Assembly: GCA_019057385.1 (NCBI GenBank)
Contig: JAHQJS010000004.1
Span: forward strand, 805,062-869,061
Length of the DNA: 64,000 nt
DNA from: Candidatus Borrarchaeum weybense
GTDB lineage: Archaea > Asgardarchaeota > Sifarchaeia > Borrarchaeales > Borrarchaeaceae
Reading direction: 5' to 3'
Part shown: in pieces, positions 31,085-40,970 of the stretch
Numbering within the stretch: the stretch's first letter is position 1
Layout of the letters: every line of letters begins with the position of its first letter
The notes under the pieces: generated by a model
Databases searched by the model: none
What the model saw: only the letters and a program-made list of their open reading frames with translations
What the model was told of the DNA's origin: nothing
Position numbers and translations under genes: made by a program

Positions 31085-31708
31085 TTGAAACAACTTATGG
31101 TTTTGAGAAATATAGAAGTTTTGAAAGCACTCCTCTCTAGCTGGAGATCGAAAATACTGCAGCTTCTTATTGTCCAAGAATATACGGTGCAACAATTGAC
31201 AAAAATGTTGATAGAGATGACAGGAGAGAAGATTAACCCTGGTACGGTATACCATCATATAAAAGTCTTGCAGGAGGCAGGACTAGTTGAAGAAACACGC
31301 CAAGAAATTGAAAAAAATATAGTTATGAAGTTTTACCGCGCCGTAGCCAGAGATTTTAGAGTTGATTTTAGTGTATTAACAGGCAAAGATGAGACTCATA
31401 GAGATGTTACTCAATGGCTTGAAAGCCGTGTAACAGGTTTAATAGACACGTTAAAAGCTTATAATATCAATATTGATCCTGAAAATTACGTCGAAGCAGC
31501 AGAGCATATAAAAGAATTCATCAACCTTGAAAATAAACTAAAAGAAGAGATTTCATCAAAAAATCCTGAACTCTTAAAAAATAAAGATCCTTCGATAATA
31601 AAAGACGCCTTCTCGCTCATGACCCTTTATCTCCTAAACCAAAATGAAGAATACGTTATGTTACGAGAAAAATTGTTAGATTTCCTAAAAATGCATGAAA
31701 GTTCATGA
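31085..31708 (+). CDS. ArsR-family transcription regulator (copy 2)
   Basis: RSKILQLL...YHHIKVLQEAGLVE...FYRAVA. Confidence 0.88.
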   Translation: MKQLMVLRNIEVLKALLSSWRSKILQLLIVQEYTVQQLTKMLIEMTGEKINPGTVYHHIKVLQEAGLVEETRQEIEKNIVMKFYRAVARDFRVDFSVLTGKDETHRDVTQWLESRVTGLIDTLKAYNINIDPENYVEAAEHIKEFINLENKLKEEISSKNPELLKNKDPSIIKDAFSLMTLYLLNQNEEYVMLREKLLDFLKMHESS

Positions 31709-31789
31709 AGTAAAAAGGTGTTGGATTAGAAAGATTTATTTGCTAATAAATATCTTTCAAAAACTCCACTCCAAAAGAGGTAGAAAAAG

Positions 31790-32506
31790 TTGAATAAAGA
31801 AAATTCGACGATGGTAAAGACAATCAACCTTCACAAAACATACGTCTCAGGTTCACTTGCCGTACAGGCGGTTCGTGGCATAGATTTAGAAGTTAAAAAA
31901 GGCGAATTTATAGCAATCATGGGTCCTAGTGGCTCGGGAAAATCGACTTTGATAAACTGTTTAGCCGCTATAGACACGCCAACAATGGGAGACATTTTCA
32001 TTGAAGGGCGAAATATCGCCGCACTTAGTGACGATGAATTAGCTGAGATCCGTTTACGTAAAATTGGCCTTGTTTTTCAGACATTTCAGTTATTTGAATT
32101 ATTGACCGCATTAGAAAACGTAGAAATGCCTATGACTTTCCTGAAGATGCCCAAAAAGAAAAGACAAGAGCGAGCTTTAGAATTATTACGAATGGTAGGT
32201 CTTAAAGCCCGTGCAAAACATCTACCCTCCGAATTGAGTGGAGGAGAGCAACAACGAATTGCTGTTGCCAGAGCTCTTGCAAACGATCCACCGATTCTCT
32301 TCTTGGATGAGCCAACTGGTGATCTTGACTCCAAAAATGGGCAGATGGTCATGGAACTACTCGCCTCGATTCATGACAAGGGTGAAACATTAGTTATGGT
32401 CACTCACGACCCCGAAATGGCCACCTATGCAGATCGTGTAATTAATATGCTCGATGGAAAAGTTCTAAATGAAGAAATCAATAACAAGACCAAAAAAACT
32501 AACTAG
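31790..32506 (+). CDS. LolD/MacB-type ABC ATPase
   Basis: [29 protein letters not shown]. Confidence 0.93.
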   Translation: MNKENSTMVKTINLHKTYVSGSLAVQAVRGIDLEVKKGEFIAIMGPSGSGKSTLINCLAAIDTPTMGDIFIEGRNIAALSDDELAEIRLRKIGLVFQTFQLFELLTALENVEMPMTFLKMPKKKRQERALELLRMVGLKARAKHLPSELSGGEQQRIAVARALANDPPILFLDEPTGDLDSKNGQMVMELLASIHDKGETLVMVTHDPEMATYADRVINMLDGKVLNEEINNKTKKTN

Positions 32507-32521
32507 TAAGAGGATATAACA

Positions 32522-35410
32522 ATGAGTTATTTGCGATACTTGTTCACTGGAATGCGTCGTAAAAAAGCCCGTACTATTCTGGGTATATTAGGTATTATTG
32601 TCTCAGTTGCGTTGCTTACAGGTATGAATGCGACAGTTGATTCATACAGTTATTCTTACATTGACCAGGCTGAACAAAACGAAGGCATTATCGACTTTAT
32701 GATTACTCGAAACACGTATGACAAAGTAAATCCGGGTTTCGAGGACGCTATATTCCTAGAAGCAAAGCCACGTTCACTTGCGGAAAGTGTGGATGGCGTT
32801 CAGGGTGTTTCACCTCGCCTTAGGGCACTCGTAGAGGTTGAAGTAATTAAGAAAGGTACAGAACAATTAGAAATCGACCTTGAACTGATCGGTATGGATT
32901 TTGATAGAGAACAAGAACTTGGAATTGGACAAATTCGCATAATTGAGGGTGAGTTCGACCTGGTAGGCAAAAAGGTGTTTATACAGCGAAGAACAGCTGA
33001 TCTTCTAAGTGTAGAAGTCGGGGATAAAATTAGATTTAATCCAGTGGAGTGGAACAAAGATGCTGGCGGCCGAAAAGGGCAATTTTTTGAAGTCAGTGCA
33101 ATCATCGAAGATGAAAATCGTTTGGCAGATTCTGATAATAATGCAATGATATGCGGATTATGGAGTGCGAGAGATCTATTAAGATCTTCAAAATACGTTA
33201 CTGAATTAGTAGGTGTTTTTGAAAACAGAGATTTCCTATACGATATTCGTGAAATTGACGCGACAGTTTCAAGGATTGTAAAATTGGGAACACGAATACA
33301 AGACGCAGTGGGTATTGAATACAACGTGGAATTACCGATTACTGAAGAATTGCAGCAGCTCGATCAACAAGGGGTCTTTATTAGAATCATCCTTGGAATG
33401 GTAGCAGTAATCTCACTGGTCATTTCTTGTGTGCTAATGTACAGTCTTTTAACAATCTCGGTTGAAGAGAAGACGCATGATTTTGGTCTATTTATGGCTA
33501 TCGGAGCAAAGAAGAAGCACATATATCGACTTGTCATATTGGAAGCGGTGATAATAGCTGTTTTAGGTACAGTTGTCGGAGTCGTTCTTGGATTTCTGTT
33601 GAGTTTAGGACTTCTCTATCTATTAACGGCGGGAGGTCTTCAATTTCTGGTAGGATCTGTAACATTGCAGATTATTGTCACACCCACGACCATAGCAATG
33701 AGTATAGTCGCAGGAATTGCAGTAGGTCTAATTAGTTCCATTTATCCCGCGATGAAAGTCACTCGGGTTAACATTGTCGATTCCCTTACGCCTATGCGGG
33801 GAACCCCTACCTATCAACGTGTAGTAAGAGAGAGGGGCGTCAGTTCGAAGTTAATTACATATGGGTTTATTATTTCAGGTGTCTCGGGATTTGTTTTCTT
33901 CATATTTCCTACAGCTTTTATTACTATGGATCTGTCTGTGATCGGTACATTATTCCTTGGAATGATGCTTGCCTTGCTATTAGGATTTGACCTGATTGGC
34001 CTTGGTGGCTTAGTTCCAAGCGTAGAAAAGTTACTTGTACGAATAATTCGCCCGTTTACCCGCCGAATTAATGACGTTGTCGCAATGTATCTTAAAAAAC
34101 ACCGCAGAAGAAATACATTAACCGCTATTATGTACAGTGTTTCAATTGCATTCATTTTATTCCTTTCAACGATGCTAACGGTACAGACACTGTACAATAT
34201 AGATGCTGTACGAGCTGAAGTTGGAACGGATTTAGCTCTTGTCTCAACCACAAGTTCAGTGCGAGGTGCAGGATTTGGCGGAGGATTTGGACCCGGTACT
34301 ACAAGCGATATTCCAATCTGGATAAACGATACAGATCTTGTCCCTAAGATTAAAGAGATAAACGGTGTAGTAGCTATTACGCGAGTAAGTCCAGAAAATC
34401 ATCCAAATGGGTCTTCAACGGTTAGAATGGGTGACCTGATAATGTTTGAAGATGTAAGCGCTAGCGTATATGCAGTAGATGCTGATTTCCCTAACGTCAC
34501 GTTCTTTGATATTGCCAGATTTACAGAAGGGGACGTTCAAGCTTTTAAGACAATTAATGAGGTGGAAAATACTACAATTATCTCCGAGGGTGCAGCAAAA
34601 AGACTTCAGGTTCATGTTGGAGACAAAGTCCGCATTCAATCCACTAGAAATCTAGCTACAGGAAGAGAAGTTTTAACTACTGAGCTTACTGTTGTTGCGC
34701 TTGCTAGTGATATGCCTGCCTTCTCGGGCTTTCAAGAGAGAGAGTCAGGTTTTAGTGACGTTTTGGTATCTCAAACTACTTACGCTTTGATCTTTAACCT
34801 CTATGAGGAACAAGATATCGATAGAACCCATAGCGGGGAACTAGAAGACTATGTCGAACCAGTCGATAGACTATTAATACAAACGACTACTTCTGAGGCT
34901 TCAAGAAGTGTCGCTCTTAACCTTAGACGATCTTATTCAGCAAGGGAAGGATTAAACGTCATAGTCGTTGTGGAAGAAATAGAAGAGGTGCAACGAAGTC
35001 TTCTTACTCTCCAATTGTTCTTTACGATAGCACTAGGATTTGGTATGGTTATTGCTCTATTTGGCCTCACAGCTAGTTGCTATACGACCATCCAAGAATC
35101 AATAAGGGAGATAGGAATCATGAAAAGTGTAGGACTTAAACGCAAACACATAACAAACATTTTTATGTTTGAGTCCATAATCCTGACGATGGCAGCTGGC
35201 CTATCAGGTACTTTTGTAGGATATTTCACAGGACTTTCGTTAATTGCACAACAGTCCATATTCACTGAACAACCGTTGCCGCTGTATATCCCTTGGCTGG
35301 AACTAGGATTAGTGATCGTTGCATCAATTATAATAGGTGCTATTGGAGCATGGATTCCATCTCGTATAATCTCGAAGAAAAATACTGCTGAAATTCTTAG
35401 AATGCGGTAA
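32522..35410 (+). CDS. FtsX/MacB-type ABC permease (duplicated domains)
   Basis: RRKKARTILG, EEKTHDFGLFMAIGA, ESIREIGIMKSVG, AEILR. Confidence 0.9.
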   Translation: MSYLRYLFTGMRRKKARTILGILGIIVSVALLTGMNATVDSYSYSYIDQAEQNEGIIDFMITRNTYDKVNPGFEDAIFLEAKPRSLAESVDGVQGVSPRLRALVEVEVIKKGTEQLEIDLELIGMDFDREQELGIGQIRIIEGEFDLVGKKVFIQRRTADLLSVEVGDKIRFNPVEWNKDAGGRKGQFFEVSAIIEDENRLADSDNNAMICGLWSARDLLRSSKYVTELVGVFENRDFLYDIREIDATVSRIVKLGTRIQDAVGIEYNVELPITEELQQLDQQGVFIRIILGMVAVISLVISCVLMYSLLTISVEEKTHDFGLFMAIGAKKKHIYRLVILEAVIIAVLGTVVGVVLGFLLSLGLLYLLTAGGLQFLVGSVTLQIIVTPTTIAMSIVAGIAVGLISSIYPAMKVTRVNIVDSLTPMRGTPTYQRVVRERGVSSKLITYGFIISGVSGFVFFIFPTAFITMDLSVIGTLFLGMMLALLLGFDLIGLGGLVPSVEKLLVRIIRPFTRRINDVVAMYLKKHRRRNTLTAIMYSVSIAFILFLSTMLTVQTLYNIDAVRAEVGTDLALVSTTSSVRGAGFGGGFGPGTTSDIPIWINDTDLVPKIKEINGVVAITRVSPENHPNGSSTVRMGDLIMFEDVSASVYAVDADFPNVTFFDIARFTEGDVQAFKTINEVENTTIISEGAAKRLQVHVGDKVRIQSTRNLATGREVLTTELTVVALASDMPAFSGFQERESGFSDVLVSQTTYALIFNLYEEQDIDRTHSGELEDYVEPVDRLLIQTTTSEASRSVALNLRRSYSAREGLNVIVVVEEIEEVQRSLLTLQLFFTIALGFGMVIALFGLTASCYTTIQESIREIGIMKSVGLKRKHITNIFMFESIILTMAAGLSGTFVGYFTGLSLIAQQSIFTEQPLPLYIPWLELGLVIVASIIIGAIGAWIPSRIISKKNTAEILRMR

Positions 35411-36611: not shown

Positions 36612-36953
36612 TTATTCAAGATATGGAATTAAACAGACGAATTTGAGCCCTTTTTCACCAGCTTTGAAATTGTGTTTCTCGTTCCCTGGAACCCAGACGA
36701 TGTCCCAAGGTTTTAGTGTTTTTTCAGTCCCGTCAGGAAACGTAACGGTACCATCGCCTTCTAAAATAAATACTTCGTGCTCCCAACTATGGTCATGAAA
36801 TGGCGAATGGCCCCCAGGTTCCAATTCAAATAATCGCATCGCAAAATTCTCTGCACCGTCTTTTTCTTTCGTGATTAGCCAGCGTACGTATGTATCTTTT
36901 GCACCTGCTTCTGCCTTTTCTTTTGTAACATCAGTCCAGTGGAATAATTTCAT
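36612..36953 (-). CDS. Cupin domain protein
   Basis: FAMRLFELEPGGHSPFHDHSWEHEVFILEG...PGNEKH. Confidence 0.92.
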   Translation of the reverse strand: MKLFHWTDVTKEKAEAGAKDTYVRWLITKEKDGAENFAMRLFELEPGGHSPFHDHSWEHEVFILEGDGTVTFPDGTEKTLKPWDIVWVPGNEKHNFKAGEKGLKFVCLIPYLE

Positions 36954-37015
36954 TCAATACCCTCCATAAGTATTTCACGTGTCCTTAGTATCAGAAATTT
37001 TCTTTTTAACTTTAT

Positions 37016-37054
37016 CGGCGGGAAATCCCCTTCCGACAGCTGGAGGTAGTTCAC
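37016..37054 (+). mobile_element. Degenerate IS200/IS605 palindromic mini-element
   Basis: TTAT|CGGCGGGAAATCCCCTTCCGACAGCTGGAGGTAGTTCAC. Confidence 0.65.
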
Positions 37055-37144: not shown

Positions 37145-37231
37145 GTATTACTGATTTATCATTGCGTAATATCCAACGTGTCTGTAGATGTAACTACCTT
37201 AAGTATTACGCAATCTTATAATCCGTAATAT
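37145..37231. promoter_or_regulatory. Two dyad operators GTATTA-N16/17-TAATAT (NikR-like geometry)
   Basis: 37145-37172 (N16) and 37203-37231 (N17). Confidence 0.5.
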
Positions 37232-37316
37232 TGAAAAGTGGCGTTTTACAAAACTTTTTAAAGAAAAAGCGCTTTATAGATACAAACAATAAATTATAGT
37301 TTTTTTGGTGACTATT

Positions 37317-37373
37317 ATGAAAAAGATCAGAAAGAAAACAGCAACTGCTTGCAAATGCGGAGCAAGCTGCTAA
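37317..37373 (+). CDS. 18-aa Cys-rich micropeptide MKKIRKKTATACKCGASC
   Basis: TTTATA box at 37273, GGTGA RBS at 37307, ATG...TAA, T-tract at 37411-37426; below the ORF-track cutoff. Confidence 0.6.
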   Translation: MKKIRKKTATACKCGASC

Positions 37374-37462
37374 AATCTAAAACAATAATACATGTGAAAA
37401 ATTCACCAATTTCTTTTTTATTTTTCTAAATTTCGAGGAAAAACAAGAGTTTTTGATGCAAA

Positions 37463-39820
37463 TCATTTTTCTAATAACTTTTTCTTTGACTTAGTTACTG
37501 CAGGACAAGATGGGCAGAAATCTGTCAAAAATCTGTAGATCCGTTCAATTTCCAATGAATTAAGATCGTAAAGCGTAAATAATAATGTATTAATTCTCTT
37601 TAGGTGGTTTTGGATATCAGAATCATTAGCGTTAGCTTCAAGAATTTTGTTAACATTTTTTACAATTTCATCAATGATATTTTCTTCTGTTGAGGTTTCT
37701 GGTAATTTAAGGGGAAGATATCTCAGAATTTCCCTATATTTTATACTTCCTCCAGGAATTACTAATCCCCAAAACATTGCTCGATAGTAAAATTCGGCTA
37801 ATGGGGAATTTAAATAGGCCAAGGCGTATTTTGTTAAAAGATTCTCACGATCCTCATTGTATTTGTCCTTTAAAAAAAGTAGATAAAGTGTATTGAGGGC
37901 GTAAAAAAACTTTGCATGGTCTGGTTTTGAATCATCCCCACCATCATAGGCTACTGTTAGGAATTTGCTTGTATTTCTGAAAAATAGTTTTTTTCTATTA
38001 AAAATAGACGGTTTTTTGGATAGATAGAGCCTTTCATGATCTGTTTCTGGCTTATATTTAAGATATATATGCCTCCAGTTAATTCTGTATCGATCTATAT
38101 CTAAACCATCAATAATTCTTCGATGGCGTTTTTGTTGTAATGATGACAAGGATTTGTATTGTTCTTCACTGATTAGAACTAATTTTCGCGTCTCTGGGCT
38201 TCCAATTCGTATGCATTGCTCAATCTTAAAGACATCTCCCAATAAAGATACCTCATCTTCCATCTTTTTAATAATCGAATAATATTTTTTGCCTAAAAAT
38301 GGAGAAAAGATGTTTTCTTGCGTCATAAAAAAGTAAGATTGGGGGAACATCATTACAATATGTTTTGGTGTTTCTTTCTCAGGAGAGGGTATAGAACTTA
38401 ACGAGTGTAAATCGTTTGTCTTGAGAACAACTGAAGTTATCGGATCGACCTTTTTATTAGTCTTTGTCTTTTGAAAAATGTAAATTCCTACACTAACGTC
38501 CTGTTTAAATACTGATTCATATAATGCGAGGTTAATCATTTTTTTGATGCGACACTTTTCTAATATGTATTCACGCAATGCTCTCCCATATCCACTATAA
38601 ACCATAAAAGCGGTTGGTAAAAGAAATCCAAGCATTCCATCAGATTTTAAAAGATCGATCGATCGTTCTATAAAGAGAACATATAGATTTAGACGTCCTT
38701 TTGCAGTTCTAAATTTTTTCTGATAAGACTCTCTCTTTTCTTTTGATATTTGTGTAACACCAACGTATGGGGGATTTCCTATGATGTAATCAAAAGAATC
38801 GTCGTCAAGTCCTGATTCGGTCAGAAAATCAGAACAGAATATCGGAGTTTTAGGAAGTACGAATGATGGTTTCTCTTGAAGAGCTTTTTTGTAATAAGGC
38901 AATAATTCGAGTACAAACCTTAGTTTTGTCATAAGACAAGAAAAGGGATAGATATCGAGACCTAAAATCTTTGAGCTATTGAATAACTCCTCTAAAACTT
39001 GAGACCATCCGAATAATTCGGCATCTTCTGTCACATCTGAGATATATCGTTTCAAAGCCTCTATTAGAAAAACTCCACTACCACATGAAGGATCTAACAG
39101 TTTCTTTTTGTTCAGTTGATTTCCTTTTAGATAACCAACACTATCTAGAATAATTTTAACTACAGATAATGGTGTATAAAACTCTCCTAAGTTTTTTCGA
39201 ATCTGTCTATCTATTATATGTTGATAAAGTTCACCAAAAATGTCAGTTTCTTGAGATAAAGATGTTTCTTCTAAGAACTTCATCATGTTACTTAAACCAG
39301 TTCTCAATTTCTCTAAATGAGATAACATTCTTTCGGGTACGGCTTTTTCGTTTTCGAATTTTTCAAAAGGTTCAAACCACCAATCGAATTGTTTTTCGTA
39401 GGGTTCACTATAGAGAAGATGAGTATCTATTTCGAAAATGAATTGCACGATATCAGTTAAAGATTGCTTTTTAGAAGCGAAAGCTGCTTGAGAAAAAGGT
39501 AATTTGTATTTCTGTGAGAAAATCGCTAGAATGGATTTGAATAACATAACCAGTAAGGTTTCAATACAAAAAAGTGTTTTTTGCGTACTTTCATTCTTCA
39601 AACCCACATCGTTTATTATATTTTTCCATGTGCGAGGTATTATTTTGGGTAGTTTTCCTTTGGAATACAGTTTCCATTCAGTAAAAATGATTTGAAGTTT
39701 TTTTGAATCATAAAGATGATATTCAAACAAAGCAAGCAAAGATTGAACGACAATGTAAAAAGAAGAATCCTCTTTTAGAGCAAATATTTTTAAAACTTTG
39801 TCCTTTGCAATAGAGTCCAT
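37463..39820 (-). CDS. N6-adenine DNA methyltransferase (Eco57I/TaqI-like) with C-terminal TRD
   Basis: LGEFYTP, LLDPSCGSGVFL (motif I), IIGNPPY (motif IV), LAYLNS. Confidence 0.9.
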   Translation of the reverse strand: MDSIAKDKVLKIFALKEDSSFYIVVQSLLALFEYHLYDSKKLQIIFTEWKLYSKGKLPKIIPRTWKNIINDVGLKNESTQKTLFCIETLLVMLFKSILAIFSQKYKLPFSQAAFASKKQSLTDIVQFIFEIDTHLLYSEPYEKQFDWWFEPFEKFENEKAVPERMLSHLEKLRTGLSNMMKFLEETSLSQETDIFGELYQHIIDRQIRKNLGEFYTPLSVVKIILDSVGYLKGNQLNKKKLLDPSCGSGVFLIEALKRYISDVTEDAELFGWSQVLEELFNSSKILGLDIYPFSCLMTKLRFVLELLPYYKKALQEKPSFVLPKTPIFCSDFLTESGLDDDSFDYIIGNPPYVGVTQISKEKRESYQKKFRTAKGRLNLYVLFIERSIDLLKSDGMLGFLLPTAFMVYSGYGRALREYILEKCRIKKMINLALYESVFKQDVSVGIYIFQKTKTNKKVDPITSVVLKTNDLHSLSSIPSPEKETPKHIVMMFPQSYFFMTQENIFSPFLGKKYYSIIKKMEDEVSLLGDVFKIEQCIRIGSPETRKLVLISEEQYKSLSSLQQKRHRRIIDGLDIDRYRINWRHIYLKYKPETDHERLYLSKKPSIFNRKKLFFRNTSKFLTVAYDGGDDSKPDHAKFFYALNTLYLLFLKDKYNEDRENLLTKYALAYLNSPLAEFYYRAMFWGLVIPGGSIKYREILRYLPLKLPETSTEENIIDEIVKNVNKILEANANDSDIQNHLKRINTLLFTLYDLNSLEIERIYRFLTDFCPSCPAVTKSKKKLLEK

Positions 39821-40700: not shown

Positions 40701-40970
40701 GTCAATTACCCCACCCTGACGGATGGGGCTTGTTCCGTGAGGAGCAAGAGCAATTAGTTGATTAGCCTAAGAGAGGTCGTGGTAAAACATGGCGGTATCT
40801 ACGTTATCAGGAGTGTTAAAGAACACACCAAGGGATGCTTCTCTAGTCCCTTGCTCTGTAAATGGTGGTTTAAACAGAGAGGAAACTCTCAGTGATCATC
40901 GTACAGTACTGACTGATAACCTTGGCGAAGAGAACCAACCTACTTTAATATTCGTTAAAGGAGGAGATAG
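40701..40970 (+). ncRNA. IscB omegaRNA scaffold (HEARO-type); guide is the flank at about 40681-40700
   Basis: GTCAA...GTTGATTAG, CTACGTTATCAG, GGGATGCTTCTCTAGTCCC, CTGATAACCTTGGCGAAGAG hallmarks directly upstream of iscB. Confidence 0.85.

Follow-up and report, generated by a model that had tools for sequence, protein, structure and literature searches.

The window analyzed here, a stretch of 64,000 nucleotides from the genome of Candidatus Borrarchaeum weybense (G000; 4.18 Mb in 8 contigs, 37% GC), contains an open reading frame (ORF) of only 18 codons, and the question is whether so small an ORF encodes a functional peptide and, if so, in which process this peptide takes part. The ORF is located at positions 37317–37373 on the + strand, with an ATG start codon at 37317 and a TAA stop codon at 37371–37373. 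It lies in a gap of 509 bp between a divergent cupin gene (113 aa, Pfam Cupin_2; 36612–36953, − strand) and the 3′ end of the next, convergent gene, which encodes an Eco57I-like methyltransferase (37463–39820, − strand). The predicted peptide has 3 cysteines in 18 aa and is built from a basic leader (residues 1–8) and a core that ends in CKCGASC directly at the stop codon. Genome-wide, a single copy of such a peptide gene is present.

Most of the expression signals listed in the initial annotation of this ORF hold up. The start and stop codons are as given there, a Shine-Dalgarno-like GGTGA (37307–37311, + strand) is located 5 nt before the start codon, and the ORF is indeed richer in GC (40%, with 52% in the core) than its flanks (22–24%). 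The downstream T-tract (37409–37426) is present as well and is preceded by a 5-bp hairpin (GTGAA-AAA-TTCAC, 37393–37405); both are conserved in the genus, and together (37393–37426, + strand) they likely form an archaeal terminator. A scan for bacterial-type promoters and terminators did not call the hairpin and T-tract, and is uninformative for an archaeon. The proposed promoter, however, has to be relocated. The TTTATA at 37273–37278 is not conserved in two relatives, whereas the alignment of relatives shows a better conserved element, TTTTTAAAG (37255–37263, + strand, about −62 from the start codon), which is most likely the TATA box. A TATA element is found at equal distance from the start codon in families f10 (a Loki-like family) and f25. 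The GGTGA(Y) sequence is invariant in all Borrarchaeum-like copies, and GGCGAT or GGTGAT occupies the same position in other families. Eight distinct DNA versions of the gene, from genomes and metagenomes, were aligned; the start codon is ATG in four of them, including G000, and TTG in four. A TTG/GTG in frame with the ORF, located four codons before the start codon, overlaps with the Shine-Dalgarno sequence, and its use as a start is unlikely. An Rfam scan of the window at the gathering threshold gave nothing at the peptide locus, and a tRNA scan of the window found none.

All Borrarchaeum-like relatives in which the region is present have the gene. The intergenic region is 72–79% identical in three congeneric genomes, and the ORF is nearly invariant there. 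Within the genus the last ten codons, which make up the core, contain four variable sites, all of them third-position and synonymous, and the leader shows two conservative replacements. The cysteines are not the only residues maintained in this way, as the K, G, T, A, and S residues are likewise held through synonymous-only change. The core is also kept in G149, which belongs to another family, with the serine encoded by TCA instead of AGC, and the Shine-Dalgarno sequence and stop codon are conserved among the DNA versions. The synonymous third-position pattern and the switch in serine codon argue for selection on the peptide, and not on an RNA or a DNA site. As judged from these alignments, the gene is conserved and is under selection on the peptide sequence. 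A conserved cysteine motif with synonymous changes is what the initial annotation had proposed to look for.

Upstream of the cupin/peptide locus, the window holds an operon encoding an ArsR/PadR-type HTH regulator (207 aa), an ABC ATPase (238 aa), and a 962-aa FtsX-type permease (31085–35410), which is conserved in the genus. On the other side, a gene for a 300-aa membrane-anchored tandem-rhodanese protein is located between the peptide and methyltransferase genes in some relatives of the genus (L015:6242–7144, − strand; L019; L026). Only a 135-aa single-domain rhodanese piece of it is left in Ca. B. yapensis (L018:1806–2213), and in G000 the gene is deleted altogether, leaving a gap of 89 nt. 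The window also has an insert of about 47 nt (37008–37054) that ends in GGTAGTTCAC, with CTT on both sides; G004 and G002 lack it in the orthologous spacer. More than 15 copies of this insert, with 80–97% identity, occur in G000 and in other Asgard families, and a copy of this type is found just downstream of the peptide gene in G004; the insert is probably a solo TnpB/IS200-IS605 right-end or reRNA remnant. At window positions 40701–40939 there is a match to HEARO, the IscB omega-RNA (134.7 bits).

Relatives of the peptide were searched for in 400 Asgard genomes with the pattern CKCGxxC followed by a stop codon, and with the reversed pattern as a control. The pattern gave 45 matches in 43 of the 400 genomes, against approximately 10 for the control. 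A MKIVKKEK-like leader is shared by the 26 matches that were inspected, and the matches in 14 genomes are due to chance. Peptides of the same build are thus carried by approximately 29 of the 400 genomes, from five families, although counts obtained with the motif itself are no proof of its invariance. A search that started from the radical-SAM gene described below found one precursor with a variant core, adjoining the enzyme gene in G150. Families f1, f18, f24, and f25 and one f10 genome have a single core unit, and most f10 peptides have three tandem units (36–43 aa, 9 cysteines). In the latter, the two variable residues of CKCGxxC are identical across the units of one peptide and different between species, which indicates that the units evolve in concert.

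Beyond the Asgard set, the exact-core pattern was searched in all GTDB species and in metagenomes, and true matches were confined to Borrarchaeum-like contigs and G149; the exact-core matches in high-GC bacteria all come without a leader and were set aside as chance. Protein-database searches with a 42-aa member returned two or three tiny relatives, next to irrelevant Cys-rich repeat proteins, and the peptide matches no family in NCBIfam. A C-terminal prenylation signal (CaaX- or Rab-like) was considered and rejected, since the C-terminus does not fit these motifs. In open-access text we found no paper on such an Asgard RiPP precursor, on a nickel-regulated RiPP or on an archaeal metallothionein. 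With open-access text as the literature searched, the peptide probably founds an undescribed family of tiny precursor peptides in Asgard archaea.

Two palindromes are present upstream of the gene, neither of them assigned to a strand: a distal box (GTATTAC-N14-GTAATAT, 37145–37172), with one mismatch to the palindrome, and a proximal box (GTATTAC-N15-GTAATAT, 37203–37231), 23 bp upstream of the TATA candidate. They are 58 bp apart. The arms of the distal box are invariant in relatives, and this box is one of only three intergenic matches of that quality in the 4.18 Mb. The two half-sites of a box are about 21 bp apart and the box measures 27–29 bp in total. The known NikR signal is an inverted repeat of 27–28 bp, with the form GTGTTAC-N13/14-GTAACAC in delta-proteobacteria and GTATGAT-N13/14-ATCATAC in enterobacteria (PMC545781). 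As RNA stem-loops, the palindromes show one possible compensatory loop pair and no consistent structure; because of this, and because they lie upstream of the TATA box, we read them as DNA operators. The divergent cupin gene, which adjoins the peptide gene in all Borrarchaeum-like loci, may share the two candidate operators. In other families the two genes are not neighbors, which means that the boxes accompany the peptide gene and not the cupin gene.

The same type of box recurs at the promoters of the nickel importer operon nikMNQO. G000 encodes two NikR proteins, each with an RHH and a NikR_C domain, and one of their genes is located 2.8 kb from nikMNQO (a cbiM/nikM-PDGLE-cbiQ-ABC operon). 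Tandem boxes precede this operon in G000, one directly next to a TATA-like element and the other a little downstream of it. NikR-type boxes precede nikM in four families, with examples in G000, G004, G149, and G142, and the peptide gene is preceded by them in f1, f18, f24, and f25. In f10 the operator has changed at both places: TCATAY-N15-TCATAY is present at 14 of the 15 peptide promoters, in many cases as two copies at a distance of 58 nt, so that the spacing of the two boxes in the window recurs, and also at the nikM promoters of G190, G033, G189, G175, and G194. The peptide gene of f10 is located 7–10 kb from nikM. In G190 and G194, the f10 motif marks the peptide and nikM promoters genome-wide, and otherwise scattered or coding sites; its extended form marks these two promoters only. 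One f10-motif match that is conserved in both genomes falls within an ORF of 543 aa and was put down to chance. This co-variation of the operator at the peptide and nikM promoters is the strongest evidence for a common regulator. The operator type held in common with the nikMNQO importer would place the peptide in a nickel regulon, and the suggestion of the initial annotation that the peptide is metal-regulated finds support, because the palindromes match the architecture of NikR boxes and recur at nikMNQO promoters. We know of no RiPP-like peptide gene reported as a NikR target.

That the regulator is NikR, that the metal is nickel rather than cobalt, and the sign of the regulation are what we infer from these promoters. 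Repression is suggested at nikM, because the boxes overlap the core promoter there; at the peptide gene, the position of the proximal box, approximately 20–25 bp upstream of the TATA element, is compatible with activation or repression. It counts against NikR that the operator of f10 is a direct repeat, which is unusual for this regulator. No NikR-type box was found upstream of either nikR gene of G000, and the transporter could be cobalt-specific, as the Pfam names CbiM and CbiQ indicate. A genome-wide scan for NikR boxes with up to two mismatches showed no enrichment over other spacings (approximately 15 matches per spacing), and the informative matches are only those with at most one mismatch or those that are tandem and intergenic. 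An exact match at C6:286495 falls within the gene for an ABC ATPase and was likewise attributed to chance. A third good box in G000, ATATTAC-N14-GTAATAT, is found outside the window (C6:919713–919740; L090), where it precedes a cluster of genes for an FmdE-like protein that has a zinc finger of the DksA type, a membrane protein of 193 aa, and a protein of the amino-acid-kinase family. This cluster, which adjoins a Nuo/Mbh-like operon, may also belong to the nickel regulon.

A modifying enzyme is not adjacent to the peptide gene in G000, as the initial annotation had observed, and its proposal to look for neighboring radical SAM genes in archaeal genomes proved fruitful. In relatives, the peptide gene is adjoined by a gene for a protein of 400–448 aa with RRE, radical-SAM, and SPASM domains. 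The two genes are less than 1 kb apart in 14 genomes and within 10.5 kb of each other in five more; the enzyme gene is downstream and co-directional in some of these (with a gap of 88 nt in G190), and upstream and divergent in G189, G142, and G150. Using a cut-off of E 1e-45 or better, an ortholog of the enzyme was found in 35 of the 400 Asgard genomes: 27 of the approximately 29 peptide-positive genomes, 8 of the approximately 370 others, and none of the 14 with chance matches to the peptide pattern, counts that overstate the significance because related genomes are not phylogenetically independent. The pattern of co-occurrence holds across five families.

The ortholog in G000 (C4:938713–939906) is located outside the window, 96 kb from the peptide gene. 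It follows an MFS transporter gene, and neither a peptide gene nor a NikR-type box was found beside it. Since the two genes are unlinked and the enzyme gene comes without such a box, it is orthology that connects peptide and enzyme in G000. An enzyme gene that is syntenic in relatives and unlinked in G000 fits modification in trans, and on this genomic pattern the view of the ORF as an archaeal RiPP precursor modified in trans, one of those put forward initially, gains support.

The CxxxCxxC motif and seven SPASM cysteines of the enzyme are invariant (alignments A2 and A4). A profile search of the PDB matched SkfB, TigE, CteB, and SuiB, the last three near full length and including the N-terminal domain. 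The AlphaFold model of the G000 enzyme (mean pLDDT 89.9) has its best structural matches in SuiB (TM 0.71), SkfB, and CteB, which points to the RRE, radical-SAM, and SPASM architecture of RiPP maturases. The enzyme does not reach any equivalog in NCBIfam (best scores 111–115 bits vs. cut-offs of 265–650), and a look-up in the ESM Atlas returned nothing beyond "radical SAM/SPASM". In f10 and f25, the enzyme gene is accompanied by a gene for a conserved protein of 81–84 aa that has three cysteines and belongs to no family in Pfam or NCBIfam (L102:9306–9551, − strand; L101:4551–4805, + strand). A distant relative of this protein in G000 (C4:960515–960718; L105:2812–3240) is part of a 142-aa ORF beside a gene for a ZIP metal transporter. 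In G190, a flavodoxin gene (L101:4864–5295, − strand) is located two genes from the radical-SAM gene, between it and nikMN; the flavodoxin is a plausible reductant for the enzyme.

Recognition of the peptide by the enzyme was modeled for G189, of another genus than G000, using its enzyme and its own 42-aa peptide, with alignments supplied for both chains. The model reached an ipSAE of 0.75, vs. 0.00 for the best of three controls; this mark was reached by 58 of 80 solved complexes and by 2 of 110 mismatched pairs. Three runs share at least 22% of the contacts, and the pLDDT of the partner is at least 36. The confident contacts are between enzyme residues 30–38 and 65–76, in the RRE domain, and peptide residues 1–13, the leader. 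This geometry, with the leader on the RRE, is known from SuiB-SuiA and CteB-CteA, so the pass of the model may partly reflect likeness to, or memory of, solved complexes. The model shows a likeness to RRE-leader complexes, and not binding as such.

The enzyme is syntenic and co-occurs with the peptide, and the operator is common to nikMNQO and co-varies with it. The mechanism that we favor combines these observations, and we consider it probable, if by no means secure: the ORF would encode the precursor peptide of an undescribed, RiPP-like system of Asgard archaea that belongs to a nickel regulon and is modified in trans. The short basic leader would be recognized by the N-terminal RRE domain of the radical-SAM/SPASM maturase, supplied in G000 from the gene 96 kb away (C4:938713–939906), and the maturase would modify the Cys-rich CKCGxxC core, for which thioether cross-linking of the sactionine or ranthionine type is the most plausible chemistry. 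Transcription would be governed by the two NikR-type operators, a signal in common with nikMNQO. The product would probably bind or handle nickel, as a chaperone, a buffer, or a metallophore. In this scheme it is inferred that the enzyme acts on the peptide and by which chemistry, which regulator is involved and whether it activates or represses, and that the product binds metal. A more specific version holds that the product is a thiol-rich RiPP, induced by nickel starvation, that captures or escorts Ni(II) for NikMNQO or for Ni-enzymes (a "nickelophore" or nickel chaperone); this is a tentative proposal, and less likely than not to be correct. Two features count against a RiPP. A leader of 8–13 residues is short for RRE-dependent RiPPs, and some three-unit forms have just one residue between units, so that protease sites would not fit and the whole more closely resembles a contiguous thiolate-rich peptide.

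Such a thiolate-rich peptide is the main rival explanation. The three or nine cysteines of an unmodified, metallothionein-like micropeptide would bind Ni(II) or another thiophilic metal by their thiolates and serve as a buffer or chaperone, and the radical-SAM enzyme would have another substrate. The CKCGxxC unit resembles a recurring motif of plant-type metallothioneins, and the three-unit forms agree with a metallothionein in composition (small size, at least approximately 20% cysteine arranged in CxC, no histidine, and few aromatic residues), with 9 cysteines in 36–43 residues. Membership of a nickel regulon would suit such a role, as would the persistence of the gene in G000 far from the radical-SAM gene. 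PF01439 is the only metal-related Pfam family with even a faint match, yet the E-values of 3.2 and 7 (9.2 and 8.1 bits) are far from its cut-off of 23 bits, so the metallothionein character raised in the initial annotation is not established by family assignment. The tight synteny and co-occurrence with an RRE-bearing RiPP maturase, and a conserved leader that is predicted to dock on the RRE and has no obvious role in a plain metallothionein, speak for a modified precursor instead, and we regard the unmodified peptide as unlikely, though it is a serious contender.

It is also conceivable that the peptide is an accessory factor, and not a substrate, of the radical-SAM enzyme or of nickel uptake, for instance as a small subunit or as an Fe-S or Ni donor. 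Synteny, co-occurrence and predicted docking show association and not catalysis, and with the 81–84-aa protein a second conserved small Cys protein travels with the enzyme. However, a leader on the RRE followed by repeated cores is the standard arrangement of substrates for enzymes of the SuiB/CteB/SkfB type, which makes this role improbable.

Still less probable is a cysteine-responsive leader peptide (attenuator), at which stalling of the ribosome on Cys codons would tune downstream sulfur genes. There is a precedent in mycobacteria, where an operon with the sulfurtransferase gene cysA2 is under the control of a poly-Cys sORF (bioRxiv 10.1101/834739), and the next co-directional gene encodes the membrane rhodanese in L015, L019, and L026 and a TauE/SafE exporter in G149. 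Yet the downstream gene varies by lineage (rhodanese, TauE, the radical-SAM gene, or none), and in G000 the next gene is convergent while ORF, promoter, and operators are intact. Moreover, the Cys codons do not follow one another directly, residues other than Cys are under constraint as well, a T-tract terminator directly follows the ORF, and the operator is held in common with a nickel importer, not with sulfur genes.

Finally, it is hardly credible that the ORF is there by chance, within an element that is conserved as a small RNA, a promoter region, or another non-coding feature: the ORF is very short, is listed by no gene caller, and has just two or three relatives in protein databases, but its substitutions are synonymous-only and third-position with a switch in serine codon family, its Shine-Dalgarno sequence, start, and stop are conserved across five families, the one- and three-unit versions remain in frame, and an Rfam match is absent.

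The precursor and maturase that we favor have counterparts among known systems. As in the SCIFF/ranthipeptide and sactipeptide systems (CteA-CteB, SkfA-SkfB, and AlbA of subtilosin), a short Cys-rich precursor starts with a basic N-terminal leader, and as in the CteB and SkfB systems the maturase has RRE, radical-SAM, and SPASM domains, with the leader predicted on the RRE. Unlike in those systems, the Asgard precursor has only 18–43 residues with a leader of just 8–13, and its core is a tandem CKCGxxC unit in which no acidic acceptor is conserved. Further differences are the Asgard hosts, the nickel-type promoter, and the separate locations of precursor and enzyme genes in G000. In contrast to the named peptide-maturase systems, such as SCIFF (TIGR03973/TIGR03974), no NCBIfam cut-off is reached.

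An archaeal comparison is with the recently described (2026) CrpA-CrpC of Methanococcus voltae, in which a repeated Cys motif is ranthionine-cross-linked by an RRE-rSAM-SPASM enzyme and which is suspected to have a role related to metals; CrpA, of approximately 29 kDa, contains ten repeats of 17 residues, and CrpC is a member of TIGR04463 (PMC13692751). Both pairs combine an archaeal substrate (a proposed one in the Asgard pair) with a repeated Cys motif and an RRE-rSAM-SPASM enzyme, but the Asgard precursors, with 18–43 residues, are far smaller than CrpA. The study of CrpA-CrpC left out proteins of less than 100 aa (PMC13692751), and therefore could not have found the Asgard family.

With methanobactin (MbnA and MbnBC), the Asgard system has in common a tiny precursor, a Lys-rich leader, a Cys-rich core, and a logic of co-regulation with metal uptake; it differs in its radical-SAM/SPASM enzyme and in its signal of nickel type instead of copper. 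The initial annotation had likened the ORF to a methanobactin-type precursor, but G000, which is 100% complete, has no match to PF05114 (MNIO/MbnB/DUF692), and this route is excluded because no gene for MNIO/MbnB was found there. With the plant-type metallothioneins (PF01439) the peptide has CKCGxxC-like units, a high cysteine content, and a small size in common, a resemblance that may reflect convergent low-complexity sequence; the conserved leader and the linked maturase set it apart. The regulatory part resembles the NikR regulons of E. coli (nikABCDE) and of delta-proteobacteria (nikMNQO; PMC545781) in having two 7-bp half-sites upstream of an ECF-type Ni/Co importer and nikR near nikM, and departs from the known NikR signals in its half-site, GTAWTAC, and in the direct repeats of TCATAY in f10. 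The type of system is therefore familiar, and what is new is the motif of the core, the very small size of the peptide, the lineage of the hosts, and the wiring to nickel; the peptide system is outside every named family that was tested.

If the product is indeed a nickelophore or nickel chaperone as tentatively proposed above, it would be the first RiPP for metal acquisition with a link to nickel, and Asgard archaea would have their first defined RiPP family. Annotation overlooks genes of this size, and protein databases of billions of entries contain two or three members; from one 18-codon ORF, a family emerges that is present in approximately 7% of the sampled Asgard genomes, together with a dedicated radical-SAM maturase. 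Besides the importer itself, the peptide gene looks like the sole target of the operator of the nickel importer, and the co-variation of this operator yields predicted NikR-type signals for several Asgard lineages. For the enzymology of radical-SAM/SPASM proteins, if the favored mechanism is correct, CKCGxxC in one or three copies would be a new minimal substrate motif. For the archaeal relatives of eukaryotes, the system would provide a first handle on RiPP chemistry, and a testable peptide natural product wired into nickel homeostasis, of relevance to anaerobes that depend on hydrogenase or CODH.
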